Assembly (NCBI GenBank): GCA_050951325.1
Contig: JBMNIW010000008.1
Span: forward strand, 256,001-320,000
Direction of reading: 5' to 3'
Length of the DNA: 64,000 nucleotides
From: Clostridia bacterium
Lineage (GTDB): Bacteria > Bacillota > Clostridia > UBA1212 > DUPL01
A program made the position numbers and the translations under genes. Shown here in pieces: positions 15,506 through 64,000 of the stretch. Within the stretch, counting starts at the first letter, position 1. Each line of letters starts with the position of its first letter. The notes under the pieces are model-generated. The model was not told the origin of the DNA, ran no database searches, and saw only the letters and a list, made by a program, of their open reading frames with translations.

Positions 15506-17015
15506 GTGGGATTTAGCCTTTACTCGTATTTTACTATCTTTTTCACCTTATATCAATAGCAATATCAAATTTAATGCATTTTCCCATAATTTATTTTACG
15601 AAAAGGCAGTCTTCCCCCTTTCCCCCAATATTATCACAGCGCGCTATTAACTTTTTTTGACCTCTATGCAGTGCTAAACATATACTCTGGACCTCTTTTT
15701 ATAAGATGCAATCCTTTTATCAATAACCTTACCAATTCTACTTGTGTGACTACCGACTTCCTTATTCTTCTATAGTAAAATAGTCTGACCAAGTTTGCTG
15801 CTATGAATTTCAAACACAGGACTGCTTCTATTGCATCTCCCCCGTGGACATAACAATGCTCTAAGCCACATTCCTTTTTCAGATAATTAAATATTGAGTT
15901 TTCAATGTCTTGCCTTCCTCGAATAATCCTAAATATTGTATCTAGTTTCATACCCATGCAAGTTGTCACAATCATTATCTGAGAATATTTTTTATTCTGT
16001 TTCTTCATTCTAAATTTAACAAACCTTAAATCTTTTTCGACATTCTTCATTCGAAAGAAACTCTCATATACAGTAACACTTTCATAGGAAACATCGTCTT
16101 CCCACACCACAACTGGTTCTGATTTGTTTACCTGCTTTTTTATTTCTTTAACACTTTTTATATTGTTACATTTAACTCTGACAATTGCATCTACAGCTGA
16201 CTCGTCGCAAGCATTAAGCCATTCAGAGTTGCATCCCAATGCATCATATACTACTACATTAATTAAATCCTTATGGTCGGCAGTAGTTCTTTTTAGTAAA
16301 CGTTTTGCAGTTGTTAGTTCTCCTTCATCTTTTTCTGCTTTATCTATACCTGCCCTATATGGCTCAAAGTCCAAAACCAGCCTTGCACGATCGCCTATTG
16401 TCGATAACACAACACTACTATGGAAATTTCTCTCTTCCTTTTTGCCTTTCTTACTCGCTTTTAAACACCTATCACAACTTTTCCTGTCACTATTAAACGT
16501 TTGTGTGCCATCTATAGCTGCGACCACATAACCATCTATTGTGCCATTTGTAAACACTTTATTTTCTCTAGCTTTGCGAACAGTATCCTTCAAAATTGCT
16601 CTTATTTTACTTACATCAATAACCTTTAACGTGTCGCGAATTGCATCTATTTTTGGAAGCTTACATCCCCTAGGCAACAAATTCTTAAACTCATTTTTTA
16701 CAATATAATTATTTAACTCATTGAAGCTTCTTGTTCTTATTATAAAACCAAAAAGAACCGGTAAAACTACAAGTTTTGTTTTGAATGTAGGATTCTTTCT
16801 TCCATCAGTGAGGTTATTTAAGCCTTTTTCGACATCAAAGACATTCTTCATATATTTTACTAATTTTGCTAAGTAGTTCTTTCTCAAATCTATCGTTCCC
16901 TTATTATTTAATTTTGATTATTTTAACAGAATTCAGCCCGAATTTGCAACACCTCTAATTTTACGTCAAAACCGCATAACTATGGGCTTTTTCGAGAACA
17001 GAGGCTAAATCCCTG
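15506..17015 (-). mobile_element. DDE insertion sequence, copy 2
   Basis: Same IRs and non-coding ends as 4104-5611. Confidence 0.85.
15664..16887 (-). CDS. DDE transposase, 407 aa
   Basis: N-terminal ~180 aa identical to 4260..5483; central part diverged. Confidence 0.85.
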   Translation of the reverse strand: MRKNYLAKLVKYMKNVFDVEKGLNNLTDGRKNPTFKTKLVVLPVLFGFIIRTRSFNELNNYIVKNEFKNLLPRGCKLPKIDAIRDTLKVIDVSKIRAILKDTVRKARENKVFTNGTIDGYVVAAIDGTQTFNSDRKSCDRCLKASKKGKKEERNFHSSVVLSTIGDRARLVLDFEPYRAGIDKAEKDEGELTTAKRLLKRTTADHKDLINVVVYDALGCNSEWLNACDESAVDAIVRVKCNNIKSVKEIKKQVNKSEPVVVWEDDVSYESVTVYESFFRMKNVEKDLRFVKFRMKKQNKKYSQIMIVTTCMGMKLDTIFRIIRGRQDIENSIFNYLKKECGLEHCYVHGGDAIEAVLCLKFIAANLVRLFYYRRIRKSVVTQVELVRLLIKGLHLIKRGPEYMFSTA

Positions 17016-37049: not shown

Positions 37050-37129
37050 TGTTAATTTGAATTAAACATTGAAAATTTTCTATTAATCATTATAATATAT
37101 TTATCAACAATAATTTGATGAGGTGTGAT

Positions 37130-39844
37130 ATGTGGAAAATACTTAAAATAATCATTTGCTTAGTCATTTGCCTTGGTATACTTGTACCCGCTCAGGGCGA
37201 GTCGGGATTTGAACCAAGGGACACTAAAGCATACGAATCCGTAGAGAATGTCTACAAAATGGATTTTTCCGTATCCGACTTGAAAGAATACACAAGCAAG
37301 GATGAATGGGCAATATCCTCAGCCTCCAGTGCCGTTATAGAGAATGGCAAGCTGACATGCAAGTCTGGAAGGTCATTTTCAATAAGGCCCGGGTTTACAA
37401 TTGGAGACGACTACGGCCTTGAGCCAGGATACTTTACCTTCGACCTGGTCATGACAGGAGGACAGATATCAATAGGCACTAGGCTCTTTTCAAACGTAAC
37501 AATTAAAGGAACACAGGGCCTTTGGTTTACACTGACGAAGGACAACCTTGTGGTAGAGGATCCATCAACTAAATTGAAGGAAACGATTAATCACGGTATG
37601 GATTTGTCAACGGAACAGAATGTCAGAGTTCTTGACAATCTTGACACTATTGAATTTAGAATCAACGACACTGTTATTTGTAGTGTAACAATTGAAAACG
37701 AAAAACTTATGCTCTTCGATGCCAACGGAAACGAACTTGCAGCCATGAAGAATGAAACCGTTCCACATGCCGGCTACTTGAGAATGGATGTGGACAAGCT
37801 ACAGGGCTCATTGGACAATGTTGAGTATGCAAACAGACAAATAACACAAAAGTATGTAGAACGCCACGGCAGAGATATCGATTACTCCACCTGGTTTGCA
37901 GTGGACGATCTGGGAAGAAAAACTCCCGATAATGAAGAAGCAGGAAACAGAAAAAATGAAAAATATGTAGGTCTCTTTTACTTCATCAACCACGTTCACT
38001 CAAGTGGCGGAGAGATCCGCGACCATACAAAAATATATCTTGAACAGGGCCTTGATGCACTGAAAGCTTTCTTGCCAAACTCACCTGGAGGACACTGGGC
38101 AGAACCATATTTCGGTTACTACCTTTCCACCGATGAATGGATTTACAGAAAGCACGCAGCCATGTTCCAGGCCGCAGGCATAGACTTCATTTTCCTTGAC
38201 ATGTCAAACGCCCAGACTTTCCCTGAAAGCGTGAAGGTTCTTTTCGATACCTGGCTTGACATAAGAAGAAAAGGTGGCCAGACACCACAGATTGTGCCCA
38301 TGTGCGGAGACATGCCCGCTACATTGGTAATTGACATGTATACAATCAAGGATACCATCTTCTCTATTCCTGAATACGAGGAACTTCTGTTCAAGTGGGA
38401 TGGAAAACCTCTCATTCTTGGAAACAACGATAATCCAGAAGGCGATCTCTGGACCGTATCAGGCACAACACCTCAGACAAGAGAACAGTTCTACGAAGTT
38501 ATTAATTCTAATTCAAAGATAAAACAATTCTATGAAAGCGGAGAATTTGCAGAGTGGTTATCCAAGTTTACCATAAGAAAATGCTGGGCTTGGCAGGCCT
38601 CAAGATACGAGGAAGACAAATCATTTGCAGGATACTGGGATTGGCTTGACTGGCATCCACAGGCACCCGGAAGGAACTTCGATGGAGTAATCGAACAGAT
38701 CTCCGTTACCATGGGAACCCATGCTCACACCAGCACTGGCAGAAGCTATGTGGGAGAAAAAGATTACGGCAACGGACTACAGGATTTTGACTTTTCACTG
38801 GAAACATCAAAGTATGGACTTTGTTTTGAACAGCAGTTCAAACATGCTCTTAAAGAGAATCCTAAAGTAATAATGATTACAGGATGGAACGAGTGGTATG
38901 CGGGCGTTCAGAAGACACAGAACAAGCAGCAGACCACAGGACACACCCTGACTCCTGGTTACTACCTGGTTGACCAATTCAACCCTGAATTCAGCCGTGA
39001 CGGCGAACCAATGAAACTACGTACTGGAGTTGGATTCGGAGACAACTACTACTACCAGATGGTAAACTATATAAGGCAGTTCAAGGGAATGGACAAAACT
39101 CCAGTTGCTTCCGGACAGAAGACAATTGACATATCAAAGGGTATTTCCGAGTGGGCGGATGTAGGACCTGAGTTTAGGGATCACCTAAACGATACCACCT
39201 TCAGAAGGCACCTTTCATGGGGTGGCGTGTACACCTACATCAACAACACAGGAAGAAACGATCTTGATTATGCAAAGGTTTCGCAGGATGCGGACAATTT
39301 ATACTTCCTGATAGCCACTGCACATGATCTTGTAACTGTCGATGAAGACAACTGGATGAACCTGTTTATAAACACAGACATAAATCATGAAACCGGTTGG
39401 GAAGGTTATGACTTTGTACTGAACAGAAGCCGTGATGGCAAGACTGTTTCAGTTGAAAAGTTTGTAGACAACGATTGGGACTTTGAAAAAGTTGGAGATG
39501 CAGAATACTTCATGGGCGACAACTTCATCGCAATCAAGGTATCAAAGAGCATACTGGGTATAACTGAAGAACTGGCATCCTTTGATTTCAAGTGGGCTGA
39601 CAACTCCACAAAAACCGGTGATGTAATGCAGTTCATGGATATGGGCGACGCAGCTCCCGACTCAAGATTCGCTTTTAGATATTTGGGTACTGCACCTGCC
39701 ACAAAGAAATCTTCACCAAACTTCTTTGCAAATATTTTTAACCCTGCAAACTGGACCGCAGTCCACCTGGTGGTATTCAGTGTGATTGCAGCAGCAATAA
39801 TTATAGTTGTAGCAGTTATACTGGCAAAGCCGAAGAAAAAGTAA
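37130..39844 (+). CDS. Secreted membrane-anchored GH99/GH71-like putative glycoside hydrolase with N-terminal LamG-like module
   Basis: YVGLFYF, W.EPYFGYY, AGIDFIFLD, ITGWNEW, SRDGEP; TM plus KKK tail; TTGAAA-16-TATAAT upstream. Confidence 0.65.
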   Translation: MWKILKIIICLVICLGILVPAQGESGFEPRDTKAYESVENVYKMDFSVSDLKEYTSKDEWAISSASSAVIENGKLTCKSGRSFSIRPGFTIGDDYGLEPGYFTFDLVMTGGQISIGTRLFSNVTIKGTQGLWFTLTKDNLVVEDPSTKLKETINHGMDLSTEQNVRVLDNLDTIEFRINDTVICSVTIENEKLMLFDANGNELAAMKNETVPHAGYLRMDVDKLQGSLDNVEYANRQITQKYVERHGRDIDYSTWFAVDDLGRKTPDNEEAGNRKNEKYVGLFYFINHVHSSGGEIRDHTKIYLEQGLDALKAFLPNSPGGHWAEPYFGYYLSTDEWIYRKHAAMFQAAGIDFIFLDMSNAQTFPESVKVLFDTWLDIRRKGGQTPQIVPMCGDMPATLVIDMYTIKDTIFSIPEYEELLFKWDGKPLILGNNDNPEGDLWTVSGTTPQTREQFYEVINSNSKIKQFYESGEFAEWLSKFTIRKCWAWQASRYEEDKSFAGYWDWLDWHPQAPGRNFDGVIEQISVTMGTHAHTSTGRSYVGEKDYGNGLQDFDFSLETSKYGLCFEQQFKHALKENPKVIMITGWNEWYAGVQKTQNKQQTTGHTLTPGYYLVDQFNPEFSRDGEPMKLRTGVGFGDNYYYQMVNYIRQFKGMDKTPVASGQKTIDISKGISEWADVGPEFRDHLNDTTFRRHLSWGGVYTYINNTGRNDLDYAKVSQDADNLYFLIATAHDLVTVDEDNWMNLFINTDINHETGWEGYDFVLNRSRDGKTVSVEKFVDNDWDFEKVGDAEYFMGDNFIAIKVSKSILGITEELASFDFKWADNSTKTGDVMQFMDMGDAAPDSRFAFRYLGTAPATKKSSPNFFANIFNPANWTAVHLVVFSVIAAAIIIVVAVILAKPKKK

Positions 39845-39852
39845 GCATAAGA

Positions 39853-39882
39853 AACAGGTGAGCATGAATGCTCACCTGTTTT
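39853..39882. terminator. Bidirectional intrinsic terminator
   Basis: AAACAGGTGAGCAT-GA-ATGCTCACCTGTTT between convergent genes. Confidence 0.85.
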
Positions 39883-39909
39883 TTATGCTTGTCCATATTT
39901 ATTTCAAAT

Positions 39910-40806
39910 CTATGCAAAAGCTCTTATGCTGCTTGCCTTGGCGGATGTTCTCAGTTTCTTCATGGCCACACTTTCAATCTGCCTTACACGCTCTCTGGTT
40001 AGACCCAGGTCATAACCAATCTCCTCCAGCGTCTTTGGGGTTCTGCCGTTCAAACCAAATCTCTCTTGTATGATATATCCTTCCCTCTTGTCAAGTTTTT
40101 CAAGAACTTCCCTGACTGTATCACTAAGCAATATGTTCTTCGCTTCTTCATACACAGGATCTGGCGAATCGTCAGATGAGATGAAATCCATAAGCTCACT
40201 ATCTCCGTCTTCACCTATTGTGGTGTTGAGGGATGCAACATTCTTATCAAAGGTCTTGTACAACTTGTAATCCTTTTCAGAAAGTTTTACATGCTCTTTA
40301 AGTTCCTCGAAGGTTGGTTCCCTACCTTCCTGCTCCTTAAATGCTTCTATAGCCTTTGAAATTGCAATGAACTTTTCGCTCATGTGAACAGGAACTCTAA
40401 TGGTTCCTTCGTTGTCATATATATGTCTAACAATACTTTGTCTAATCCACCAGGTAGCATAAGTGCTGAAAGCATATCCTTTTTTATACTCGTATTTGTC
40501 AACAGCACGCATTAATCCTATGTTTCCTGCCTGAATCAAATCCATAATGGACTCTTCGACCTTGTACGTCTTCTTTATTATCTTGGCATATTTTACAACC
40601 AAACGAAGGTTGTGGACTACCAGCTTGTTGTATGCTTCCTTGTCCCCATCTCTTGTTCTCTTAAACAAATCTTCCACTTCTTTGGGTTCAAGCAATCTGT
40701 ACTTGCCAATTTCCCTAAGATATTGCTTAAGCGCACTGGTATCAACACGATCATCTTCCAAGTATTCCTGAGCTTCGTGGTCACTATATTCTAATCTTTC
40801 ACTCAT
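39910..40806 (-). CDS. RpoD/SigA-like sigma-70 factor lacking region 1.1
   Basis: YLREIG, NLRLVV, DLIQAGNIGL, FSTYATWWIRQ, TRERVRQIE; RBS AGGAGG before ATG 40806. Confidence 0.9.
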   Translation of the reverse strand: MSERLEYSDHEAQEYLEDDRVDTSALKQYLREIGKYRLLEPKEVEDLFKRTRDGDKEAYNKLVVHNLRLVVKYAKIIKKTYKVEESIMDLIQAGNIGLMRAVDKYEYKKGYAFSTYATWWIRQSIVRHIYDNEGTIRVPVHMSEKFIAISKAIEAFKEQEGREPTFEELKEHVKLSEKDYKLYKTFDKNVASLNTTIGEDGDSELMDFISSDDSPDPVYEEAKNILLSDTVREVLEKLDKREGYIIQERFGLNGRTPKTLEEIGYDLGLTRERVRQIESVAMKKLRTSAKASSIRAFA

Positions 40807-40954
40807 TTCGCCAACCTCCTTTAGAACATCAATTTGTCTATGCGTATAATTATATTTGGTGATATTAAATAATAAATAGTTTAAATATAAAGTAACACGC
40901 AACAAAAGTTAAACATTTCCTAAATTATCCTTTATGAACATGGTGACAAGCCAT

Positions 40955-43300
40955 TTAGATATATTCTTCTATAAACCTTGACCTATTCTCTGAATTAAAC
41001 AGAAACGCAACTTTAACACGTGCTCTGGATACTGCCTGATGCCACAAACGTCTTTCAGAGGCAAAGGCATACAATTCAGGCTTTATGCCGAATAAACTCT
41101 TTACGTTCTCCCCCATCATTCTGTCCGGGAATCCCATATTGTACCTTCTGGCGTTGATGATGATGACGACGTCCGCACTTTCATCAAGATCGTATACGGT
41201 TTTAACGGGAATATCTGAAAGATTCATTTTGGAAGCCAAAACAATATCCTCCTTAAATCTTCCCACTAAAATTACAGAATATTCATTTGGGAGTGAATTT
41301 ATATAATTTTGTAAAGTGTTTTTCATAATCTCAATCTCATTTTCATCAAAAAGGGACTTTGTATCTTCCTTCTTGCATTCGTAAGACAAGAGCGTCACAC
41401 AATCGCGAGGACTTGCCATTTCACACCTTGCATACTTCCTCACCTGCATGGTGTTGCGTTCAACAAACCTTGCATTCATGCTCCACAATCTCTGTCCCTG
41501 GGAAAATACCCTTGTAAACTTAATGGACTCGGAGTGTCCAAAGAATCTCGAAAACTCCGTGAAATATGAAAAGTCGTAAGCACAAATACCACTCTTGGTC
41601 TGCCAGTCATTACCCGCAACAATTATACTTACCTTATCCATTACAATGTGCCATACATTCCTGAGCAAGTTCAGCATGTGTCTGTTCGTGTTGTGAAAAT
41701 CGTCAACAATAATATGTGTATAACCAAGAGACCTTCTCTGCAGCCTGATGGTCTCGGATGCCATCTGTACAATACCAAATGCATCCGTATTGTCACCGAT
41801 ATAGTTTAAATATGTTTCGTATACTGGCATAAGCAATGAAAACACACTTTCATTTCTCTTGTACCATCTGGTCTTTGTTTTCATGCTTTCTCTGTTCAAG
41901 AAAATGATTTCTTGCCATGTTTCAGAGTTGTCTCTGGCCAGCTGCAACAGCTCGCCAAGCACTACTGAAATTTCACGGATTAAAAACGGATTTCTCTCAA
42001 GAATGATTTTTAAAAGAGCATTCGCACTCATGGGAGCAAACACAGCCAAATGCTTCATGAGCTTTGTCTGCAAGTGGTCAACCAGAGTGGATTCCATAAG
42101 CTCGTAAGTAAACACATCCACCATCACAGTGTGGTTCTTTTCATGAATTTCTCTTATACGCTGCATCCTCTTTTTATATATCTCTGTAGGTGTCTCTGAA
42201 ACCAGGGACGTACCCGTGTCAAATCTGGCCTCACCTGCGGCATTTATTTCAAACACCTCAATATATATATCAAAGTCTGGCAGATAGAAAACTGGCTTGT
42301 ATGAAGTTCCATCATAATCCAGTTCTCTAACGCAATAGTCTTGCATGTACCTGTACCTTATATTGTTTCTGTACAGGAAGTCAGCTACAGCAAGATGCTC
42401 GTAATTCTTCATTCTGGTTCCGTCCAGTGCAATAGGAGGATATTCCTCCAGAAACTGCAAATAATCCTCATAATCATCAAAATCAAAAACAACACTACCT
42501 GCCTGCCTGAAGTTTAGGTAATAGTCTACAAACCTGGACTTGTACTCCTCTTCCTCCAACAACTTTTTAATTGTGCTTTCTGCAAATTCTTCATAGTCCA
42601 CATCAACAACATCAGGCACCTCTTTTCCATGGTCGGCAAGCACCTGAGCACTGTAGTCGATATATGTTTTGGCAATGGGCGAAATTCCCTCTTTTTCAAG
42701 CATCCGATTTACTTTATCAGCATTCTTTCCGCTATTGGTCAAAAACAATATATTATCCTCAGGCACATTTTTACCCTTTACCAGATACTTCACTTTACCA
42801 ACACAGGTATGTGTAAGTCCCGATGTACCTGCACCAATTAGTCTGAGCCTTTTTTCATCCACTACAACAGCTGTTTTTTGTTCCTTGTTAAGAATCACAC
42901 CATTTATATTAAATATGCTTTGATCTACAGAACCAATCATCTTGTCAACAACAGGCTTGTTATGTCTTTTTCTATACTTTTCAATCAATTTGAACATTCT
43001 GATTATCATGTTCAGATCATCTCTGAACACCCTGAGAATGTATTTGAAATCCTTGGACTGCAGAATTATGGACACTCTGTCATGAAGCTCCTCATGCCTG
43101 TCCTGCCAATCGAGCATTTCATTCAAGGAGACATATCTGTTCTTGTCTTCAAAGAGTTTCTGGAAATCCTTATAAGCTTTCAATGTATCGCTTTTCAGTG
43201 TTTTGAGTTCCTTTTTGAAAGCTATTCTTTCTTGCTTCCTTACCTTAAAATTCTCAATCATTCTTTTCATAACATCCAACTCCAAACAAGTATTCTCCAT
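40955..43300 (-). CDS. Helicase IV (UvrD-family) homologue with degenerate motifs
   Basis: LNKEQKTAV, GAGTSGLT, IIVDDFHN, AGNDWQ, ERRLWHQAVSRAR. Confidence 0.75.
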   Translation of the reverse strand: MENTCLELDVMKRMIENFKVRKQERIAFKKELKTLKSDTLKAYKDFQKLFEDKNRYVSLNEMLDWQDRHEELHDRVSIILQSKDFKYILRVFRDDLNMIIRMFKLIEKYRKRHNKPVVDKMIGSVDQSIFNINGVILNKEQKTAVVVDEKRLRLIGAGTSGLTHTCVGKVKYLVKGKNVPEDNILFLTNSGKNADKVNRMLEKEGISPIAKTYIDYSAQVLADHGKEVPDVVDVDYEEFAESTIKKLLEEEEYKSRFVDYYLNFRQAGSVVFDFDDYEDYLQFLEEYPPIALDGTRMKNYEHLAVADFLYRNNIRYRYMQDYCVRELDYDGTSYKPVFYLPDFDIYIEVFEINAAGEARFDTGTSLVSETPTEIYKKRMQRIREIHEKNHTVMVDVFTYELMESTLVDHLQTKLMKHLAVFAPMSANALLKIILERNPFLIREISVVLGELLQLARDNSETWQEIIFLNRESMKTKTRWYKRNESVFSLLMPVYETYLNYIGDNTDAFGIVQMASETIRLQRRSLGYTHIIVDDFHNTNRHMLNLLRNVWHIVMDKVSIIVAGNDWQTKSGICAYDFSYFTEFSRFFGHSESIKFTRVFSQGQRLWSMNARFVERNTMQVRKYARCEMASPRDCVTLLSYECKKEDTKSLFDENEIEIMKNTLQNYINSLPNEYSVILVGRFKEDIVLASKMNLSDIPVKTVYDLDESADVVIIINARRYNMGFPDRMMGENVKSLFGIKPELYAFASERRLWHQAVSRARVKVAFLFNSENRSRFIEEYI

Positions 43301-43618
43301 TCAGCCCATCTGACTTTATCTTACCATATTATCAGTAAAGTTTCTATAAATAAATGGATGTGTATAGTATCTGGAATGCGATTGGTATATAAATATATGC
43401 AAGTATGGCAATTATGTGCTGCAAACAATACTACTATGACTTGAGTTTCCGTTTTTTCAGATTTTTAATCGAAAAAATCTAAGCAAAGTTTTTTGCCAGG
43501 CTCTATTGTTGAGCCGCCTTCGGTTTCGCTTTAAAACAAGCATGCAAAGTAAGCCTAGTTAGCTAGGCTTCTTAAAAAAATATATCTTCCTACTCTTCTA
43601 CTTCTACTTCTGCTGCTT

Positions 43619-43980
43619 CTATGTTATGGGCACCAACATCAGTTGCTGAAACCGAGGTCGCCGTTCAATCCTTTGCCACTCTTTAATACCTGTCCGTGCA
43701 TAGTCTAGTGTATTTTTAATGCCTTGAGCCATTTGGTAATAGTAAAACAAAATGTCCGTTCGCAATCCTCTTGCATTCTCTATCATTTTATTAGCTAAGT
43801 TGTTTTTCTTGTGCTTCTCCTGCATTAGACCAATAAAACCAATAGCATATGTAAGCATTTTATTTAGATTATTGATTGATTTCAAGCTTCGAACTCTAAA
43901 ATCCTCAAAATTGTATTGAGTCTTTTTAAATCTAAAGTATTCTTCAATACGCCATCTAGACATATATAACCTAAGTATAC
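43619..43980 (-). pseudogene. 3' half of the split IS4-like transposase
   Basis: ILRLYMSRWRIEEYFRFKK (YREK-type motif). Confidence 0.85.
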
Positions 43981-44587
43981 CTTTAACTCCCGTGTTATTA
44001 AAAATGGTATCGATACTGAAAATATATTTAAACCTATTAAGTTTGATTATTTAAAAGAAAAATATAATTTAAAGGATGAAAAGATTTTACTCCACGTAAC
44101 TGCGGATTTTGATGATAAAGTTAAAGGGAGTAAGTACTTTATTGAACTTGCAAATAGGCTTGAAAATGAGAATATAAAGATTTTATTAGTCGGCAAAAAT
44201 GTTTGTAAAGAAAATCTCCCTAAGAATGTAATTGCAGTAGGAGGTATATATGACCAAAAAGAACTTGCTGCATATTATTCCATGGCTGATTTGTTTGTAA
44301 TTACAAGTATTAGAGAGACGTACCCAACAGTTTGTATTGAAGCTATTTCATGTGGAACACCTGTAATTGGATTTGATACTGGAGGAGTAAAAGAGACTAT
44401 ACCAGAGGGTATGGGTAGAGCTGTAGAAGCCTATAGCGTAGACGAGCTTTATTATGCTGTTCTTGAGTTTATTGGTAAGAAAGACAGTGTTTGCAAGGAA
44501 GTTATTAATAAAGCAAGGCATCAGAATAGTAAGGCTAGAATGATTAATGATTATATAGATGTATATATAGAGTTATATGAAAAGTAG
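43981..44587 (+). pseudogene. 5'-truncated GT4 glycosyltransferase
   Basis: RVIKNGIDT, KGSKYF, ADLFVITSIRETYPTVCIEAISCGTPV; begins abruptly at the IS junction. Confidence 0.8.
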
Positions 44588-44614
44588 GACAATAATATAA
44601 AAGAGGTAAAGATA

Positions 44615-47068
44615 ATGAAAAGTATTAGAAAGTACATAAGTTTAATTCTTCTTATATTTGTTTTTTGTACCGTGGTAGATGTAAATAACTTACCTTATTT
44701 ACATGCAGAAGAAGTCGTAGTTAATTTATATGACTTAAATAACAGCGTAGAAACCTTTGATTTAGATCTAGAATCTACATATGCTATTTTATTTAATGCG
44801 GGTATACCAATAAAAGAAGTACAACTTTATATCGACAATGCACCTGTTAATCGAAGCAAACTAGAAATGGATTTATATAGCTTTGATACCAGCTACGGTA
44901 ATACGATCCGTAAGGAAGCTATTGTTTCTAAAACCTTTGAAAGGTTTGGCAGAGATACATGGCTTTCCTTTGAAATTGGAAATATAAATGCAGGAGAATA
45001 CTTGCTCGTTATAACTCCGAAACAAGGGAATATAAAGGTAAAAGTTAGCGAGGGCAAGCTTGATACAGTAAGAATGTACGAAAATACATCAAGTTTAAAT
45101 ATGAACTTTTTCTGCAGATTAGTACTTGAAAAAGGGGATGGTAATAGTTTGGAGAAAGTATCTGATTTTAAAAATAAATTTATTGCATTGCCAGATACTT
45201 GGGCATGCACCGATGGATTGAATAGAACTCTTCCTTTACAAAAAGATGTGGGTAAAAAAAGAGAAGATAAATATGTAGGGGTTTTCTTTCACACATGGCA
45301 TTCAAGATTTTCAGCACATAGCTTTGCGGACATATCCCAAATATTAAAACAAAATCCAAATGAGAAAAATTCCTCAAATATAAATTGGGGAGATAAGTTC
45401 TCATATTTTTGGAGCGAACCTATTTGGGGTTATTACGATACTAGAGATAAATGGGTACTAAGAAAGCAAGCTGAGATGCTAGCCGATGCAGGCGTTGATG
45501 TAATTATTATGGATAACACAAATGGAACTGATATATTTAAAGAAGGACTCCTTTCGCTACTGCAGGTTTTTTCAGAAGCAAGAGCAGATGGTGTAAAAAC
45601 ACCTCAAGTGTCCTTTATGTTACCTATGTTTGGTCCTTATGAAGATACAGCAAATCAACTAAGACAGCTTTATGATTTGATTTACTCAAAAGGAAGATAT
45701 GAGGATTTATGGTTTTACTGGAAGGGTAAACCTTTAATGATGGGTTGTCCTGATGCATTAAGAGAAAGCAATCCTATTGATAAAGCTATTTTAGACTTTT
45801 TTACTTTTAGGCCAGCTAATCCATCCTATAGGGAAGACTACGCCCAAATTTTTGATGAGCAGGGAAATGTACACGTATATATTCGTCCGCCGGAAGGTCA
45901 TATTACATGGCAATGGATAACTGTAATGCCTCAGCAGGTGGCCTATAATACAGATGGAACACCAGAACAAGTCTGTGTATCTGTAGCCCAGAACTGGAGT
46001 AATGAACAAGGCCTTGCCCCTATGAGCTTTAATGAACCTGAAAAGCTTTTTGGAAGATCCTATTCCCACTCCCAAAAAGGCCATGACAAGAGGGATAACG
46101 CCCCTTTGTATGGGAAGAACTTTGAAGAACAATGGGAATTTGCTCTGAAGGTGGACCCGGAGTTCATTTTCATAACTGGATGGAATGAATGGCGAGCTGG
46201 GCTAAATAATGAGATATGGGGAACTAAAAATGCCTTTGCTGATACCTTTGATGATAATAACAGTAGAGATATTGAACCGTCAAAAGGTGATTTAAAAGAT
46301 CACTACTATTATCAGATGGTATCTTACATACGTAAGTTTAAAGGAGCATCCGATGTGCCAAAAGCATCAAAACCTGTAACTATAGATATACATTCAAGTA
46401 CTGATCAATGGAAGGATATTAGTCCGTACTTTGCGTCTTATCAAGGTAACAATTTGGATAGGTACTATAGGGGCTATGGTGGTTTAAATTATAAACAGGA
46501 AGGCAATAAGAATGATATTGTTGGTGCAAAAGTTGCAAGAGACGATGAATTTATTTACTTTATGGTAGATACAAGGGAAGACATACATATAGGTGATAAC
46601 TTTATGCGGCTTTTAATTGATGTGGAAGATACAAAACATAAAGAAGCAGCTAACTGGGAGACTTTTGAGTATATTGTAAATAGGGTTGCACCAGGGGATA
46701 AAGCAATTGTGGAACGCTCGGTAGGAGGATGGAACTGGGAGAAGGTAGGAGAGGTTGATTATTCTATTAATGGTAATCGCCTTCAACTTAAAGTACCAAA
46801 GGCAATGCTAGGAATTGATAGAGATGAGTTCACAATCAACTTTAAATGGTCTGATAACATGAAAGATGAAGGTGACATAATGGATTTTTATGTTAATGGA
46901 AATGTTGCTCCCGGTGGTAGATTTAAGTATAGATATTCCACTGCTACTGAGGATGCAAATCCTGTTTCTACATTTGTTAAGTACATAGTTCCTGTTTTAG
47001 TATTTGTTATTGTAGCTTCTTTTGGTTTAGCTATATTATTTAAAAAGAATAGAAAGAGAAAAGGTTAA
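44615..47068 (+). CDS. Secreted membrane-anchored GH99/GH71-like protein, paralogue of 37130..39844
   Basis: YVGVFFH, FWSEPIWGYY, AGVDVIIMD, ITGWNEW, SRDIEP, FKWSDN. Confidence 0.65.
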   Translation: MKSIRKYISLILLIFVFCTVVDVNNLPYLHAEEVVVNLYDLNNSVETFDLDLESTYAILFNAGIPIKEVQLYIDNAPVNRSKLEMDLYSFDTSYGNTIRKEAIVSKTFERFGRDTWLSFEIGNINAGEYLLVITPKQGNIKVKVSEGKLDTVRMYENTSSLNMNFFCRLVLEKGDGNSLEKVSDFKNKFIALPDTWACTDGLNRTLPLQKDVGKKREDKYVGVFFHTWHSRFSAHSFADISQILKQNPNEKNSSNINWGDKFSYFWSEPIWGYYDTRDKWVLRKQAEMLADAGVDVIIMDNTNGTDIFKEGLLSLLQVFSEARADGVKTPQVSFMLPMFGPYEDTANQLRQLYDLIYSKGRYEDLWFYWKGKPLMMGCPDALRESNPIDKAILDFFTFRPANPSYREDYAQIFDEQGNVHVYIRPPEGHITWQWITVMPQQVAYNTDGTPEQVCVSVAQNWSNEQGLAPMSFNEPEKLFGRSYSHSQKGHDKRDNAPLYGKNFEEQWEFALKVDPEFIFITGWNEWRAGLNNEIWGTKNAFADTFDDNNSRDIEPSKGDLKDHYYYQMVSYIRKFKGASDVPKASKPVTIDIHSSTDQWKDISPYFASYQGNNLDRYYRGYGGLNYKQEGNKNDIVGAKVARDDEFIYFMVDTREDIHIGDNFMRLLIDVEDTKHKEAANWETFEYIVNRVAPGDKAIVERSVGGWNWEKVGEVDYSINGNRLQLKVPKAMLGIDRDEFTINFKWSDNMKDEGDIMDFYVNGNVAPGGRFKYRYSTATEDANPVSTFVKYIVPVLVFVIVASFGLAILFKKNRKRKG

Positions 47069-47394: not shown

Positions 47395-49623
47395 TTATTT
47401 AACTCTAAAAAGCTTACTCCCATTTCCTTCTACTGTTATTAACATATCATTATTCAGAATCTCCAACTCTTTTTTTGTCAAAAGATCCTCAACTGTATTA
47501 TTGTTTAAGTTATCAAAACTAAGATTACACGACACAATATTGTCAGAAACATTAAGCACAAGCAAATAGCAATTACCATCTATAGCTTCTACACCTAAAG
47601 TCCGGATCTTGTCATTGTCAGAGTAAACTACAAAGGGGTTTATTTTGCTTGTTGTTTTATAATCAATACTCGCCATTACAACAATACCAAAGTCAAATAC
47701 TTTTTCTTCTTTATCAAACCATTGTGGTTTTAAATCAAAAGAAGTACATAACTCATCACATAGCAAATATCCTCTTTCTTTATAAAAACTATGTCTTAAG
47801 CCAACTTTTCTATAATTTGGGTGATAGAGCTTTAAATCCTCTCCATATCCTAAAACTATCCCTAACTTATTGTCTACATTAACCCATCTGCCTACAGAAC
47901 TAAGACTTTCCTCTACTCCTTCATGTTCAAACTTTAAAACGCCATCTTTATAATAATATTCACGTTTAAAATCATTAAAAACATCATTAGGTATATTTAG
48001 ATGAAACCCTTTTACTGCATTCAAATGACAACGCCTAAGTGTATATGCATATTGCAGTGTCATAGTAGTATGTCCATCCGGTAAAGCAGCAAACGCAATT
48101 TTATTTGCTACATTAGTATTCCTATCATCTTGCTCTTCTAATAACTGACTTGTTATTGTATGGTAAACACCACTTGTTACAAATCCTCCATTAAAACTTT
48201 CATTATTAAACGAGACAATTTGATTGGTATTAACTAATCCTCCACCTTCAACTCTACTTGTCATGTTGTATTGCCATTCTGCAAGAGAACTATCGTTTGT
48301 TGGAAGACAATGCCCCTGTGGACCCTCTGCACTTCTCCAAACAAAAGAAGCATATCGATTTTCGTCTTTAACAAACTCTGCTCCATGGTACTCATCAGAC
48401 CACGCACTTAACTCCTTTTTGTATTCCTCATTAATGTCATAATCACTTGTACCATATCGCTTTTCTATTTCATTATACTCTCTTCTCCAATATGCACCTG
48501 ATGAAATAGTACAAGCTCTATCTGACTCAAGGCGTGTAAAATAAAGAGGAGATTTCTCTACTAGAAGCTCACAACGTTTTGATAAAAAAGTATTATCATC
48601 ATTGTAATCCATCTCCTTCTTAACAATTTCAAGCCATCTCTTTTCTAGTTCATCGCAATCTTCATTAAGACAGTCTTTCACTAATAGCAAAACAGGTACT
48701 AAGTAATCTTGACAATAGCAATATCTAACTCTAGTATCACCACCAATTCTAAACAACCTACCATCTTCATATATAAACGCTCTAACAAGTCTCCATAAAT
48801 ATTCCATATTATGATATAAAGAAGCAGGAGCCATTTGTCTATATTTGCGGTATGTAAAGTGCAACATCGCAATATTAGATAATGTTATAATCATATAGCC
48901 CACATTGAGATAACCATGATGATTAAGTGAATAACTCTCAAAAAAATTTGCACCCGAATGCCAATCTTTTAAAGGCTTCCCGAAATATATTTGATTGCTA
49001 TCTTTATCAGAAGGAATTGATATTGCATTTAGCAAGAAACGATTTCCCTTCTCCTTATACTTTTCTACATTAGGTGCATCAGGATACATAAGTGCTGCAC
49101 GAAGCAAAGTTGCACCATTCCACATATTGCTTTCAGGTTCATTAGGGTGAATCTCATTTGCATTAACCGGCTTATTTATTAACAGCCAATCAGCTTCTGA
49201 TAAAATAACCTTCCTAAGCAACTCTTTGTCATCATTCGTTAGATAATCAAAGATTGCTTCTACACCATGCATCATTCTCTCTATACCTAAAGCACTAATC
49301 CAAGTGTGCCCCCACTTAACATTCTCTCCATCAGTGCAATGATAACTACCTTCTTTATGAGATTCTAAGTTGTAGCGTAGTAGCATAATACTTATTTCAA
49401 GTAATTCTTCTTTTGATATTCCCATCCTACGAGAATCGGCATAGGGATCTGTAGCTAATACTGCAAGTGCAGAAAACCCTTTTTGATGAGTCTGCACACC
49501 CCAACCATTTGTTCCAGTCCCATAAAATTTAAGAGTAGATCTGTCTTTTACAGAATGTATATCATTAATAGCAGATTTTACCCATCTTTCAAGAACTCTT
49601 ATATAATCTTTGTGTGAAACCAT
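47395..49623 (-). CDS. Hypothetical 742-aa protein, possibly alpha/alpha-barrel plus beta-sandwich polysaccharide-lyase-like
   Basis: Long ORF with AGGAGG RBS; WGHTW, PESNMWNG, NHHGYLNVGY; helical N-half and beta-rich C-half. Confidence 0.55.
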   Translation of the reverse strand: MVSHKDYIRVLERWVKSAINDIHSVKDRSTLKFYGTGTNGWGVQTHQKGFSALAVLATDPYADSRRMGISKEELLEISIMLLRYNLESHKEGSYHCTDGENVKWGHTWISALGIERMMHGVEAIFDYLTNDDKELLRKVILSEADWLLINKPVNANEIHPNEPESNMWNGATLLRAALMYPDAPNVEKYKEKGNRFLLNAISIPSDKDSNQIYFGKPLKDWHSGANFFESYSLNHHGYLNVGYMIITLSNIAMLHFTYRKYRQMAPASLYHNMEYLWRLVRAFIYEDGRLFRIGGDTRVRYCYCQDYLVPVLLLVKDCLNEDCDELEKRWLEIVKKEMDYNDDNTFLSKRCELLVEKSPLYFTRLESDRACTISSGAYWRREYNEIEKRYGTSDYDINEEYKKELSAWSDEYHGAEFVKDENRYASFVWRSAEGPQGHCLPTNDSSLAEWQYNMTSRVEGGGLVNTNQIVSFNNESFNGGFVTSGVYHTITSQLLEEQDDRNTNVANKIAFAALPDGHTTMTLQYAYTLRRCHLNAVKGFHLNIPNDVFNDFKREYYYKDGVLKFEHEGVEESLSSVGRWVNVDNKLGIVLGYGEDLKLYHPNYRKVGLRHSFYKERGYLLCDELCTSFDLKPQWFDKEEKVFDFGIVVMASIDYKTTSKINPFVVYSDNDKIRTLGVEAIDGNCYLLVLNVSDNIVSCNLSFDNLNNNTVEDLLTKKELEILNNDMLITVEGNGSKLFRVK

Positions 49624-58828: not shown

Positions 58829-61800
58829 TCAGCTCTTTTCCATCAGTTTTCTGGCATGTTCCATAAATTCCTTAAATCGCTCCTCATTGCGCACACTATC
58901 GAACCACTCCCAGCCGCGGGTTACAGTCATGCTATAATACATAAAACCACTGTTATCCTGGAAACACCAATCATACTGCAATAGCTCCGTTGTTCCATCA
59001 GGCAGCTCAATTATACCACTGCCCTTGATGACCTTGACTCCACCAAATATTAGTTTGCTGCCTACTTCAAGTGGTGTGCCATCAGGTATCTCAGTCCATT
59101 TCGCGTATAGTTCTAAGGCGCGTTCAAGATAATTGTATCCTTCATCTCTTTGACCACAACCAAACAAAGCACAAGCAGCTCTAAAGCAGCAGCTTGCATA
59201 CAACCCAAGCCAGGCACGGGGTACACCTTTTCCTTCTCCCAAAAATTCACACATGCCCATACTATACTTGAACCATGCAACAGCACGCTCCGCATTACCA
59301 CGATTGCGTTTTGGCCGTTCCAACATATGAAGAACAAGCTGTAGTTTATTTACAGATTCGCGCAAACGGCTTTCTTCATATTTTCCCTGACGCCACAGAT
59401 CCTCCTCAATCACTTCTCCATATATTGAGCTGTACTGAGTCACAATTTCAGGTTTCTTCCTTATACCACAACGATCTTCGAATATAACGATGTTTCCATC
59501 CTCATCCACCACATATGTGTACTCCGCACTGCCTATATAGCCATCAGTAAGGTTTTGCGCTTCATATTTACGCATCATACCGTCACCAACAGGCATAAAG
59601 CCTTTTCCCACACCTTCATAAGCTGTAAGCTCATAAACTGTCTTTGCAAGTTCTTTGCCGGGATGATAGTTTACAGTACGTATAATTCCTACTCCCGGAG
59701 CAAAATAGTATTCTTTCCTGCCTCCTCGATATGTAAGACCTGTGTCAAACCCTTTTATATCAAGCGATAACTTGATGCAGTCATTGAAGGTGCCGGCTTT
59801 GGTAGCAATTTCTCCTGCTTTTTCAGAAACAATTGTTGTTTTAATATAATAACTGTTCCATAGCAAGAATTCCTCCACATATTCCCCTTCTTCTACCCAT
59901 TCATCACACCAGATGCAGTTCGTGCCATTTTGCAAAATATCGTAAATGTCATTAAAAAGGAGTGCTTCTTCAGAAACATTACCCCACCTGACATTCTTCC
60001 ATTCAAAAGACCACCGATAATTATCCATATACTCCAGCCTGCTGCCTTTCCCAAGAGCATACCCTTTCCTAAAAAAGTTCCAATGCCCAGTATGCATATA
60101 ATCAGGATTGAAGGAAGGATCTGTTGCAAGAATCCTCTCCACAACAGAGCATGCAGCCTTTGTATGGGCCCTTTGCATTGGTGTTTGAGCAAGTATTCTT
60201 GCCCTTTCCACGGCATGGGATACGTCATGCAATGTATATTTGCCATCCTTGTAGCTGCAGTATTCATTGCGTATATGTTGAATCATGTCAATCCAGGAAT
60301 TATCATCATAACCAAGTCTCTCAATCTCACAGTTCTGTGTAAGCAAAACTTTTTTGTCGTCAGCATGACTCATAACGAACCTGGAAGAATGAAGAATAAA
60401 CTTTGGGTTGTTGTCTGAAACATATTCCCAGGAGTTGCCTGTATGGCTTGGCAAGATTCCTTTTCCTCCTACTATGTCATACGACTTTAGAAGTCTTGTT
60501 TCTTTGACACCATCACATTGCCTTACGTGTTTGACAATACCCACATCCTGTTTGTAGTATGTGTAATATGTAGCTTCTTTGTGCTTGGTAATCCAAAGCT
60601 GGCAGCTTTCGAATGTACCACAAGGAGTTTCAACCTCTGCCGAATCCTCTGCATACGCAAGAGTCGTACCGTCGGAGCCTGTGTAGGTATCACCTACTCT
60701 CAGACCTTCAATGATAAAATTGCCATCGCAGAGGGATGCGTTTCTAAAGATAAAATCAATCTCAAGATCAAAAGAGATAAGGTGTCCATTCGAATACCAC
60801 TCCTGGTTCCAGCGGCACAGCTTTCCATTTATTAACCGGTATTCCTCAGCTGCACATCTTAATCTGTATTTGTCCTCATCCTTATCAGCGTACTCCTTCA
60901 AATGTTTCCTTTCCATCTTCGTTGCTGCAATTGCATATGCATAATACAAGTCGGAGGGTTTTATGATTGACAGCACTTTTTCAAACGCTTCAAAACCTTT
61001 CTCAGTCTCTTTATTCTCAAAGTATGCTTTCCCAAGCCAGAACCACTCATGTGCAAGGCTTTTCACAAATCCCAGTTTCTCAAGTCTGGGAATCTGCTTG
61101 TCACGAATAAATTCATGTCTTACCCCGTAGGATACTTTTAAATCCTCCCTGCTGACCACAAACTGCATAACTTCATCGTTCCTGCCTTTTTCAGCGGCTT
61201 CCACAATCCTGGCAAACAAAGCGTCGTTCTTGTCACCGGGAAGCCACCACCATCCACGCATCAAGACATCCGCCAATGCATGATACTTGTCAATAGATTC
61301 AGGAAGTTCTTCCACATCTTTTAGTACATCATTGTATACAACCTCAAATCCGTCTTTACTATTCATAAGTTGCCATAGTTTCATTTCCTCAACCTTTTTC
61401 ATAACCTTCTTAACAAAAGTGTCCCTGATTTCCTCATTCATGGAGCTCAATCCTTTCCTTATTCTTTTTCTGCCATCATGGAGCTGCCACTTTACTGTCC
61501 CTGGGGAAATTCTCATTCTGTCTGCAATCTCCGCAACAGACAAGTCCTTCAAAGTAGTGAAGATAAATAATATCCCTTACTTTTTCAGGCAGCTTGCTGA
61601 TGCCATTATGAAGTTTTTCCTTCTCTTCGGATTTTGCATAAAGATAATGAGGATCCTCATAATATTCATCTTTTAGATTGAAACCATCGACTTCCTCCAG
61701 ACTGAGGAAACTGCGGTACCTTGTAACCATGTTTTTTGCACAATTCTTTGCAATGCGGCAAACCCACGCCCTAAACTTGGCAGGCTCCCGCAATACATTT

Positions 61801-61997
61801 AACTTCATCCATGCAGTTACAAATGCGTCTTGAGCAGCATCCTCGGCCATGAACTGATTATGTGTGACAGAGCTTGCGGAAGCTATTACCACTTTTTCAT
61901 AGCGTGCAACAAGAACTTCATAAGCTCTTTGCTCTCCTGCAAGCGTCAGCATAACCAGTGTTTCGTCGTTTTGATCATAATATAGCAAATGCATCAT
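58829..61997 (-). CDS. ECF sigma factor fused to a ~880-aa C-terminal extension, split by a 1-nt frameshift near 61545
   Basis: Region 2 AEDAAQDAF..FRAWV and region 4 LPEK..LHYFEG / LSVAEIA..GTVKWQLHDGRK continue across the frames at GAAGGACTTGTCT. Confidence 0.8.
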
Positions 61998-62078
61998 CCT
62001 TTACATTAACATCTTTTCAAAAAGTTTTTTCTAGCGCTACCCTATAGACACATATAAGAGGAAAAAGGTTGGGTTTTC

Positions 62079-62831
62079 CTAAATTTTTATCTGGTGTTTA
62101 TATATCACAATGGTAATATCATCGTACTGAACCTTGTTTCTTTCACTGATCGACCTGTCTTTTGCAAGGTTGACAATATATTTCACACTCTCCTCCAGAT
62201 TATCCGAATTGACAATCTCCATTAATTCTTCAGGCTTGACATAATCACTTACACCATCCGAGCACATAACAACAATGTCCCCATCCTTCATTTCGATTTC
62301 TTCTACTGCATAGGCAGGAACAACCATGGGAATAAAGATATCAAATAAAGACCACATGCAATCAGGCAATCTCCCAATATACTCTTCGATTTGCTCTTCA
62401 GTAAGCAAGCCAAAATCCACAATAGTCTTGTACCTCTTTACCGGCTTTGCCACCCTTTTAACAGTGTTTTCATGTATTATGTATGCCGGTGAGTCGCCAA
62501 TGGCTGCAATAGTTGCCACATTGTTGTCAATCACACAAATATCAAGAGTACCAAAGGTTAGGGTTTTACTTTTTTGTGATATATATATCAGTTCATTGTT
62601 TATTCTCCACACCATATTTTCTATATACTCTTTTGCAGACAGGTTGGATAAGCAAAAAGGACTATCTTTTATATTCCTTACACAACATTCGGACATTACG
62701 ACTTTGCCCCTTTTCCCTGCCCCTGATGCACCATCAGACAATACCAGTGTTGTTTTGTCTGGGGATATATAAAACATATCGCCATTAATGCCACTGGTAC
62801 CTACAAGACTTTCACCATAACATATTGGCAT
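62079..62831 (-). CDS. PP2C-family Ser/Thr phosphatase
   Basis: NGD, LSDGASG, IGDSPAY, CSDGV, DDITI. Confidence 0.85.
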   Translation of the reverse strand: MPICYGESLVGTSGINGDMFYISPDKTTLVLSDGASGAGKRGKVVMSECCVRNIKDSPFCLSNLSAKEYIENMVWRINNELIYISQKSKTLTFGTLDICVIDNNVATIAAIGDSPAYIIHENTVKRVAKPVKRYKTIVDFGLLTEEQIEEYIGRLPDCMWSLFDIFIPMVVPAYAVEEIEMKDGDIVVMCSDGVSDYVKPEELMEIVNSDNLEESVKYIVNLAKDRSISERNKVQYDDITIVIYKHQIKI

Positions 62832-62913: not shown

Positions 62914-64000
62914 CCAAATGTCATTAACTTAAGAGATCGCAATACATGTTTTGTTGCGATCTCTTAGTTTATTTCAAATCTTAAATTAACTGGCACGGTA
63001 TTTTATTGATCCTTCTAATACACTTTATCTTTGTCTTGTTACAGATTTAAAAAATGACATAAAAAAGTTAAGTTATAGTTTATAACAATAACTCTTGCTA
63101 TGTAAATATTAGGAATATGGAAAACTAGGAGTTTCTTTTAATATTATTAAGAACCTCTTGCTTTTTGCATTTTTGTGTCTGTTGAAAGAACGCCCTTTTC
63201 TTACAGGTATAAGTTCTGATTGTATTTCTTTTATGACTTTCTCGAATAAGATTCTGCGTTCAACATCACTATCAGTTGCTACAAATCCTATTAGTTCATC
63301 CCTCATTACTCCGATTGCGAAGTTTTTATTTATAGTCATAACATGTTTGTATTTGTTAAGTTTTCCCTCACGCTTTAACGATTCTTCGGCATCTCGAATA
63401 ACATCTTGGATAATGTTACACAGATATACTGTTGCATATATATCTTGTTCTATAAGTAACGGCTTTGTTCCTGTAAAGTTTTCGATTTCTAATTTGTTTT
63501 TTAAGGTATCATATACTGTTTCTATTGCCCATCGCATAAAATACAAGTCCGAAATTTCTTTGGTATTGAACTCTTCTTGGCTTAAATTAGTAGCAAGATA
63601 CTCAGTTTCACCGGAAGATAAATGCATGCGTACAAATCTTACAAACATAGAACCAACAGTACGTAGTTTCTCTGCAAACTCTGTATTTCGATAAGGGTTA
63701 ATACGGGTCTGATCAAATTTTATCTCAATAATTTCATCATCGGAAGTCATAGACGATTGCTCTCTTTTGAACTGCGAAGAGCTTAACCTCATGAGAAATT
63801 TTTGTCCCTTCTCGAATCGATTAAGCATATTTTCAATTGAAGGATAACCTCTATCAAACAAAACGATAAAGGCTTTGTCTTCAATAATTTCAGCAATGTT
63901 ATCAATATTCTTCTCGGCAACAGCTCGTTCGTCAAAATTATTCCTGTTAATAGATATATCTAAAATAAATTCATTACACACATCGTATATACAAGAAAGA
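62914..64000 (-). mobile_element. IS4-family element truncated by the window edge (transposase 63109 to beyond 64000)
   Basis: FDRGYPS, YLATNL, YFMRWAIETVYDTLK; end motif CTTAAGTTAATGACATTTG on the minus strand at about 62914-62932. Confidence 0.85.

Follow-up and report, generated by a model that had tools for sequence, protein, structure and literature searches.

A probable helicase IV-like pseudo-enzyme encoded beside a short RpoD-like sigma factor gene in a Clostridia bacterium

The window analyzed here is a stretch of 64,000 nucleotides from the genome of a Clostridia bacterium (contig JBMNIW010000008.1, positions 256,001 to 320,000 of the forward strand); all positions below are counted from its first letter. 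On its minus strand, upstream of a gene for a short RpoD-like sigma factor, lies a gene (40955..43270) for a protein of 771 aa related to helicase IV, of helicase superfamily 1 (SF1), with altered motor and nuclease motifs, which we call the pseudo-helicase. Selection keeps this gene intact, and its product is very probably a maintained pseudo-helicase and pseudo-nuclease. The explanation that we favour as a whole, with moderate confidence, is that selection has preserved a non-catalytic helicase IV-like protein with a binding or scaffold role, in a conserved cassette with the sigma gene.

As the initial annotation stated, the open reading frame (ORF) is uninterrupted: it runs on the minus strand over 40955..43300 and is open from the ATG at 43300 as 781 aa. 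Translation probably begins at the second ATG (43270), because the relatives are called from there, GGAG precedes it, and contigs assembled from RNA libraries stop at 43285-43298.

How strongly is this protein constrained? Just three close full-length sequences were found in 5.8 billion clusters, with 100%, 89% and 57% identity; there is an additional fragment with 239 aa (P0009), and a search for shorter proteins returned two fragments alone, identical to the window. Comparison with the 89% relative, a metagenome locus (L029), gave 163 synonymous and 90 non-synonymous differences, a synonymous distance (dS) of 0.47 and a ratio of non-synonymous to synonymous distance (dN/dS) of 0.105 by the Nei-Gojobori method. 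The ratio stays at 0.05-0.15 in each of six 130-codon blocks, and for the sigma gene against the same locus it is 0.051. Homologues with the same degenerate motifs were sought, and the 57% relative (P0003), full length as well, proved to carry the same altered motifs. The earlier reading of a full-length pseudo-enzyme, not a gene in decay, is thus upheld by the low dN/dS against the 89% relative and by the changes shared with the 57% one.

The catalytic motifs were compared over 152 aligned sequences, which comprise the three members of this clade (the pseudo-helicase and its two relatives) and 149 other representatives among the matches listed from a search of 1.84 billion representatives; motif functions are as generally known for SF1 helicases. 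The strings first quoted for this gene (GAGTSGLT, VDDFHN, GNDWQ, ERRLWHQAVSRAR and YKPVFYLPDFDIYIE) are all present in the translation, and the motifs with which they had been contrasted agree with the family consensus: AGAGxGKT, DEFQD/DEYQD, GDDWQ, ERRLFYVAxTRA and YKPDFYLPDYxIYIEHF, the last of which we take to fit the Vsr/DUF559 pattern.

All remnants lie on the minus strand. In the Walker A remnant GAGTSGLT (aa 146-153, 42812..42835) Leu replaces the Lys of GK[ST]; this position has Lys in 143 of the 152 sequences, a gap in six, and Leu in the three clade members. The Walker B remnant IIVDDFHN (aa 520-527, 41690..41713) has DD instead of DE, and where 140 of the 152 sequences have Glu the trio has Asp or Asn (DDFHN/DNFEN). 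The motif III remnant AGNDWQ (aa 552-557, 41600..41617) carries Asn in the pseudo-helicase at a position with Asp in 140/152. The Arg of motif IV is absent, and motif V (HxSKGLE) is lost, with TVYDLDESA in its place. Motifs III, IV and V of SF1A helicases are all missing in their canonical form, and so is the Walker B Glu. Motif VI (ERRLWHQAVSRAR, aa 739-751, 41018..41056) is largely kept, including its Arg (SRAR; Arg in 138/152). In the remnant of the nuclease motif (YKPVFYLPDFDIYIEVF, aa 324-340, 42251..42301) the Asp of PDF has become Val, and Val replaces His after a retained Glu. Asp occupies the PDF position in 138/152 sequences and all three clade members have PVF; in PD-(D/E)xK endonucleases the Asp of this (P)D motif is catalytic.

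Kept in the pseudo-helicase are the Gln of the Q motif, the P-loop glycines and Thr, the first Walker B Asp, the Trp of motif III and the Arg of motif VI. The statement that each catalytic motif is changed therefore holds for Walker A and B, motifs III, IV and V and the nuclease motif, and is slightly overstated, since the Q motif and the motif VI Arg remain. Judged from its motifs, which lack the Walker A Lys and Walker B Glu, canonical motifs III to V and the nuclease Asp, the protein most likely neither hydrolyses ATP nor cuts DNA.

At the level of domains, Pfam found UvrD-helicase (PF00580) as a weak match, with 26.1 bits against a cut-off of 23, and no other match in the pseudo-helicase. 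The best NCBIfam match was helicase IV PRK11054 (NF008276), with 123.8 bits over aa 437-779, below the cut-off of 543. A PDB sequence search with the single sequence gave no match at E<=0.01, and the ESM Atlas returned generic UvrD-helicase clusters and nothing else. The AlphaFold model, built on 115 relatives, was confident (pLDDT 93.2, pTM 0.89). UvrD, PcrA and Rep were the best structural matches to model residues 114-771 (Z 33-37), for example UvrD 4c2t_B (Z 37.3, root-mean-square deviation (rmsd) 4.1, 422 aligned, model residues 116-771) and 1uaa_A (Z 33.8, rmsd 2.8, 412 aligned). The model has a UvrD-type fold with two RecA-like domains, as in SF1A proteins of the UvrD/Rep/PcrA kind.

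Two further domains accompany this core. The N-terminal domain (aa 1-113, 42932..43270) is helical, with two helices of ~38 residues and short helices between them in the secondary structure of the model, and lies outside every listed structural match of the whole model. A Vsr-like domain of PD-(D/E)xK fold sits at the 1B position (aa ~278-410, 42041..42439). When the insert (aa 195-415) was modelled alone (pLDDT 91.5), its part 84-216 matched I-Bth0305I (3r3p_B) with Z 9.8, rmsd 2.6 and 97 aligned residues. Vsr (1cw0_A; Z 8.5, rmsd 3.7, 117 aligned), NGO0050 (3hrl_A; Z 7.5), TnsA (Z 7.2) and VRR-NUC (Z 6.6) also matched the insert, as did Bax1 and Hjc. This list is dominated by PD-(D/E)xK enzymes, which places the insert, at modest Z values and with no Foldseek match at E<=1e-3, in the restriction-endonuclease-like fold. 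The inserted nuclease-like segment of the initial annotation is thereby recognized as a PD-(D/E)xK/Vsr-like fold with its Asp replaced.

The same architecture and length class are found in helicase IV-like SF1 helicases of Firmicutes with a Vsr-like insert (P0010-P0156), a group whose named type is E. coli helicase IV/HelD. These relatives are 20-31% identical over the full length, and the N-terminal domain and the nuclease-like insert are common to both. The pseudo-helicase differs from them in its score, far below the family cut-off of 543, in the loss of catalytic residues, in the absence of the C-terminal topoisomerase-type zinc ribbon present in P0010 and in the family consensus, and in its position on a long-stemmed clade of its own.

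It is possible to trace this degeneration across the order. A homologue at E<=1e-10 is present in 21 of the 45 genomes of the order; 12 of these carriers have proteins of 710-770 aa with 24-31% identity to the pseudo-helicase, and the remainder have canonical forms. The 12 proteins form a sister clade in which GAPSTGK[ST] is kept, Walker B has DD or DN, motif III reads GCDW[TC], motifs IV and V are absent, motif VI has become ERNLLCKA..K, and CIN replaces IEH in the nuclease motif. Here too dN/dS is low (0.087-0.199 in the five pairs with unsaturated dS, of seven pairs). A tree of 59 rows (quick search, LG+G4) united all degenerate forms in one clade (SH-aLRT 100) with P0008 outermost, and joined the trio with Lys-to-Leu to 13 intermediate rows as its sister (SH-aLRT 99). 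Both P0008 and the sister clade retain GK[ST]. The order of loss can be followed: motifs IV and V disappeared early, along with the Walker B Glu, in the whole subclade, and the Walker A Lys later, in the lineage in which the gene was joined to the sigma gene. Outside the tree, P0069 (837 aa) and P0122 (717 aa) have Asp for the Walker B Glu and other motifs altered, and degeneration may therefore have arisen more than once in the family.

The subclade is narrow. Its profile scored above 950 bits in only six genomes, all of the same order, among 398 genomes of the class; the others reached at most 354 bits. A genome search at the level of the taxonomic family found this genome as its sole member. 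The genome has no canonical helicase IV-like paralogue: the best match to the canonical query P0014 was the pseudo-helicase itself (222.7 bits), and the remaining matches were other SF1 types. Residues invariant in the degenerate clade lie mainly in the N-terminal domain (K12, Y46, D64, I96 and N104, of which N104 is nearly invariant family-wide), in the nuclease-like domain (e.g. D249-Y250-Y251) and at aa 460-496 (R460, Y470, R472, E474), and the motor motifs hold few.

The pseudo-helicase is most probably a non-catalytic descendant of a helicase IV-like SF1 helicase, and it retains every part of the ancestral architecture: a helical domain at the N terminus, a pair of RecA-like domains and, at 1B, the Vsr-like nuclease insert. 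Constraint falls on the N-terminal and nuclease-like domains and on the helical region of aa ~455-500 rather than on the motor site. The protein probably serves for binding or as a scaffold, in the manner of RecC and AddB, which are dead SF1 helicases within RecBCD and AddAB. These two use SF1 folds without motor activity, and the likeness is one of possible working mode; the AddB chain 3u4q_B matches the model with Z 22.6 and rmsd 5.6 over 408 aligned residues. In RecC the inactive SF1 fold is accompanied, according to PMC1185551, by an inactivated PD-(D/E)xK-like domain. The pseudo-helicase is not their homologue at the subfamily level, its domain order differs, and its genome has no live helicase IV-like partner for it.

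The second gene of the cassette encodes the short RpoD-like sigma factor (39910..40806, minus strand, 298 aa). Its ORF spans 39910..40905 on the same strand as the pseudo-helicase, so the co-orientation first reported is correct. The gap of 148 nucleotides (nt) between the genes is correct as well if the sigma gene starts at the ATG at 40806, its probable start, which is preceded by AAAGGAGG. Regions 2, 3 and 4 scored 61.1, 58.2 and 50.3 bits in Pfam, all above the cut-offs, which identifies an RpoD-like sigma-70 factor; region 1.2 scored 21.8 against a cut-off of 22, and region 1.1 gave no match. The genome has a separate primary sigma factor, with which the short one shares 42% identity. Among the short RpoD-like (group-2-like) sigma factors of Clostridia, of ~299 aa, it is an ordinary member with 57-74% identity to many others; a closer one, P0158, is 85% identical. 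Searches for related loci in genome contigs, with the helicase and with P0158 as queries, brought up no close relative.

The arrangement is conserved in close relatives. L029 has the helicase gene, the sigma gene and the tail of the same glycoside hydrolase family 99 (GH99)-like gene, with trmB upstream; where L029 has trmB, the window has a remnant of an insertion sequence (IS) and ~10 kb more. The 57% helicase (P0003) has one Logan contig as its only source, and so has an 83% identical sigma factor (P0160); in both cases the contig measures 6343 nt. Very likely this is the same contig, and the cassette is then probably present in the 57% relative too.

The spacer is AT-rich (40807..40954, minus strand, 148 nt) and unusually conserved, with nine mismatches to L029 in 148 positions (6.1%) against proportions of synonymous differences (pS) of 0.35 and 0.23 in the flanking genes. 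The scan found no terminator-like site between the two genes, and an Rfam search of 39500-44700 at E<=0.1 gave no match. The spacer folds no better than shuffled sequences (z 0.13), so RNA structure does not explain its constraint; a promoter or operator may lie within it. Over the 80 nt that lead up to the ATG at 43270 three positions differ from L029, and homology ends further upstream. Within these ~80 conserved nt an extended -10 element, TGATAATAT (43326..43334, minus strand), may be the promoter of the pseudo-helicase. Promoter-like sites were no commoner than in shuffled sequences (17 against 16.5), so promoter readings here are inferred. On the other side, a 13-bp hairpin from the terminator scan (39852..39881, minus strand) lies between the convergent sigma and GH99-like genes and is likely a two-way terminator.

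Is the cassette also transcribed as a unit? The stretch was found in DNA runs from anaerobic digesters and bioreactors and, with 77-93% of its words matched, in six metatranscriptome runs. Contigs of four RNA runs, each from a different study, were compared with the locus. One contig of X15 (39896-43298) and one of X16 (39873-43285) cover both genes exactly, a contig of X17 covers 39700-42474, and one of X20 (39891-41095) bridges the spacer, which is thus bridged in all four runs. All four break off at 43285-43298 and leave 43318-43700 uncovered. For the convergent neighbour the contigs reach as far as 39840/39841, and those on the sigma side stop at 39873-39896, with adaptor-like loose ends at 39841 and 39896 in X15. 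These ends give a weak hint of a transcript start near 43285-43298 and of a unit with one boundary near 43300 and the other at the hairpin.

Accordingly the initial proposal of a two-gene module stands in part. L029 shares the cassette together with its spacer and the 80 nt upstream, and contigs bridge the two genes, but linkage is confined to a narrow lineage: the 89% relative has it and the 57% one probably does, and it was not seen at helicase or sigma loci elsewhere in the order. Within that lineage the pseudo-helicase and the short sigma factor would form a cassette with its own promoter region, a constrained spacer and a shared terminator. Co-transcription of the two genes is on balance probable, and a functional tie between their products is plausible, though less likely than not. 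That the pseudo-helicase is a dedicated partner which gates or targets the holoenzyme of the short sigma factor, as a DNA-structure sensor, anti-sigma or co-sigma, we regard as unlikely. As such it would be a nucleic-acid- or polymerase-binding accessory, co-transcribed with the sigma gene, and would take the place held in related genera by a single-stranded DNA-binding (SSB)-like gene with two OB folds. A complex prediction with aa 115-771 of the pseudo-helicase and the whole sigma factor scored 0.00 against a mark of 0.32; it excluded the N-terminal domain, was run without controls and counts neither for nor against a complex.

Several observations weigh against the explanation that we favour. 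The loss of both activities is read from motifs, and the retained Q motif, P-loop Gly and Thr, first Walker B Asp and motif VI Arg would still allow nucleotide binding. Motifs Ia, III, IV and V include residues that bind single-stranded DNA in UvrD/PcrA; changes in all four touch these residues and make binding of nucleic acid in the canonical groove uncertain. The RNA-library contigs show neither a single transcript nor its strand or end, and carry-over of DNA into such libraries is possible. No conserved partner gene adjoins the homologues of the sister clade, whose neighbours are varied (an AlbA_2/HATPase_c_4 protein, an AMP-binding enzyme, a DAP epimerase, a patatin). A sigma gene lies within ~1.5 kb of the helicase homologue at none of 19 loci in the order. 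The linkage is moreover one evolutionary event, observed at two loci and inferred for a third from the shared 6343-nt contig.

Some of these points belong to the strongest alternative, that the pseudo-helicase acts independently, for instance by binding DNA or a partner in a role inherited from the ancestor of the order, and that its adjacency to the sigma gene is a lineage-specific rearrangement without function. We consider this a serious competitor, a little short of even chances. Besides the absence of sigma genes from the flanks of all 19 homologue loci, no helicase homologue was found at any of 16 loci of sigma orthologues in the order. Instead, at 12 of these 16 loci the upstream co-oriented gene codes for an SSB-like protein of ~225 aa (counted by BLAST), with the Pfam SSB match in its C-terminal half in the two of the 12 on which Pfam was run, L043 (2609-3289, minus strand) and L046 (648-1325, plus strand), both of the set L043-L057. 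In related genomes the sigma factor and this protein may form a pair. The genome under study has its SSB-like gene on another contig (L072:1477-2124, minus strand), behind the same deacetylase gene and without a sigma gene. This is the ancestral deacetylase context, and the sigma gene therefore has moved; the IS-rich region also fits such a rearrangement. Next after that SSB-like gene come a P-loop ORF of 147 aa and a PriA-like gene.

On the opposite side, the cassette and its constrained spacer persisted while the helicase diverged to 57% identity, there is no intergenic terminator, and contigs from RNA libraries span both genes. In addition, the short sigma factor is present in all 13 genomes with a degenerate homologue; four genomes have the sigma factor alone, and 28 of the 45 have neither. 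The carriers are two genera and the genome under study, and this co-occurrence among kin therefore represents few independent events. In the genus with nine carriers, a single genome (G024) has neither a degenerate helicase homologue nor the short sigma factor; it is just 86% complete, so the double absence may be an assembly gap.

A second alternative develops the analogy drawn in the initial annotation with Bacillus HelD: the protein would bind RNA polymerase with its N-terminal arm in the secondary channel, without ATP turnover, and act on the holoenzyme of the neighbouring sigma factor. HelD, the RNA polymerase recycling factor of Bacillus and Mycobacterium, has an SF1 core with an extra N-terminal domain, a Gre-like coiled coil that enters the secondary channel, and a similar length; its chain 6wvk_H matches the core of the model (Z 25.6, rmsd 3.9, 369 aligned), and the N-terminal domain of the pseudo-helicase consists of two long helices. 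According to PMC8655204, N-terminal domains are found in helicase IV and HelD and are missing from UvrD/PcrA, while helicase IV and HelD differ in domain organization, helicase IV having a putative 1B domain. However, the likeness is limited to the core: the alignment begins at HelD residue 145 and leaves the arm uncovered, UvrD/PcrA match better (Z 33-37), and the family profile finds HelD at 5.5e-13 and PcrA/UvrD at ~1e-61. In HelD a clamp-opening arm is inserted in domain 1A, whereas here a PD-(D/E)xK/Vsr-like nuclease fold occupies that site. HelD also requires ATP for recycling, as stated in PMC4005671, and the ATPase of the pseudo-helicase is predicted to be dead. The analogy is thus weak, and HelD-like polymerase binding is improbable.

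Still less probable is a surviving enzyme, in which an unconventional site would bind and slowly hydrolyse a nucleotide as a switch. The retained Q-motif Gln, P-loop glycines and Thr, first Walker B Asp and motif VI Arg would suit it, as would GK[ST] in the sister clade and in P0008. But the Walker A Lys is Leu in all three members, the Walker B Glu is Asp or Asn, neither the motif IV Arg nor motif V is left, and near the P-loop there is no clade-specific lysine, since K159 occurs also in the canonical consensus (GKVxYL). Finally, a decaying pseudogene still uninterrupted by chance, which the loss of catalytic motifs alone might suggest, is highly improbable given the dN/dS of 0.105, the full-length relatives at 89% and 57% identity, the confident model (pLDDT 93) and the presence in RNA libraries.

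A literature search found no description of the degenerate subfamily or of a helicase-sigma cassette or module. SF1-derived pseudo-enzymes have precedent, since a few repair machines, among them those of RecC and AddB, contain dead helicases that persist as binding modules; here a whole helicase IV-like protein has lost both motor and nuclease and is under strong constraint nonetheless. The coupling to a sigma factor is the surprising part, and it rests on one lineage-specific event. Were this coupling functional, it would show the recruitment of a repair enzyme into transcription control and offer a handle on the unstudied short RpoD-like sigma factors common in Clostridia; as a dedicated partner, the exapted repair enzyme would make a new two-gene transcription module. 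If the coupling has no function, the locus is a clean natural case of pseudo-enzyme evolution in uncultured bacteria of anaerobic digesters.

A reading of the locus as a defence system was considered and rejected, as MzaA, HEAT_CxxC_PD-DEXK and PDC-S69 gave weak domain-level matches only. The sigma factor of the MZA system, MzaA, scored 244.4 bits in NCBIfam against a cut-off of 800, through its sigma-70 part (model positions 473-713 of 726), and in PADLOC the match was limited to positions 386-667 of 683.

The cassette is flanked by the genes of two large paralogous proteins (37115-39844 and 44615-47068, both on the plus strand); both proteins have a membrane anchor at the C terminus and a GH99-like match that is weak. 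A 742-aa ORF at 47395-49623 has no Pfam match. Upstream of the cassette, the C-terminal remnant of a DDE transposase adjoins a truncated GT4-type glycosyltransferase (43619-43963, minus strand, and 44282-44587, plus strand); the remnant, together with the ~10 kb absent from the interval between trmB and the helicase gene in L029, points to an IS-mediated insertion. Other IS elements of the window lie at 4260-5483, 15664-16887, 12832-13314 and 63109-63981 on the minus strand and at 13440-15164 on the plus strand; among them are an IS110-family fragment and two DDE transposase ORFs that start with TTG and are each 407 aa long. At 58829-62831 (minus strand) a small protein with sigma-70 region 2 (61476-61997), a 907-aa TPR/DUF3108-like protein and a PP2C/SpoIIE-type phosphatase adjoin, and this cluster could be an extracytoplasmic function (ECF) sigma factor with its own regulators.

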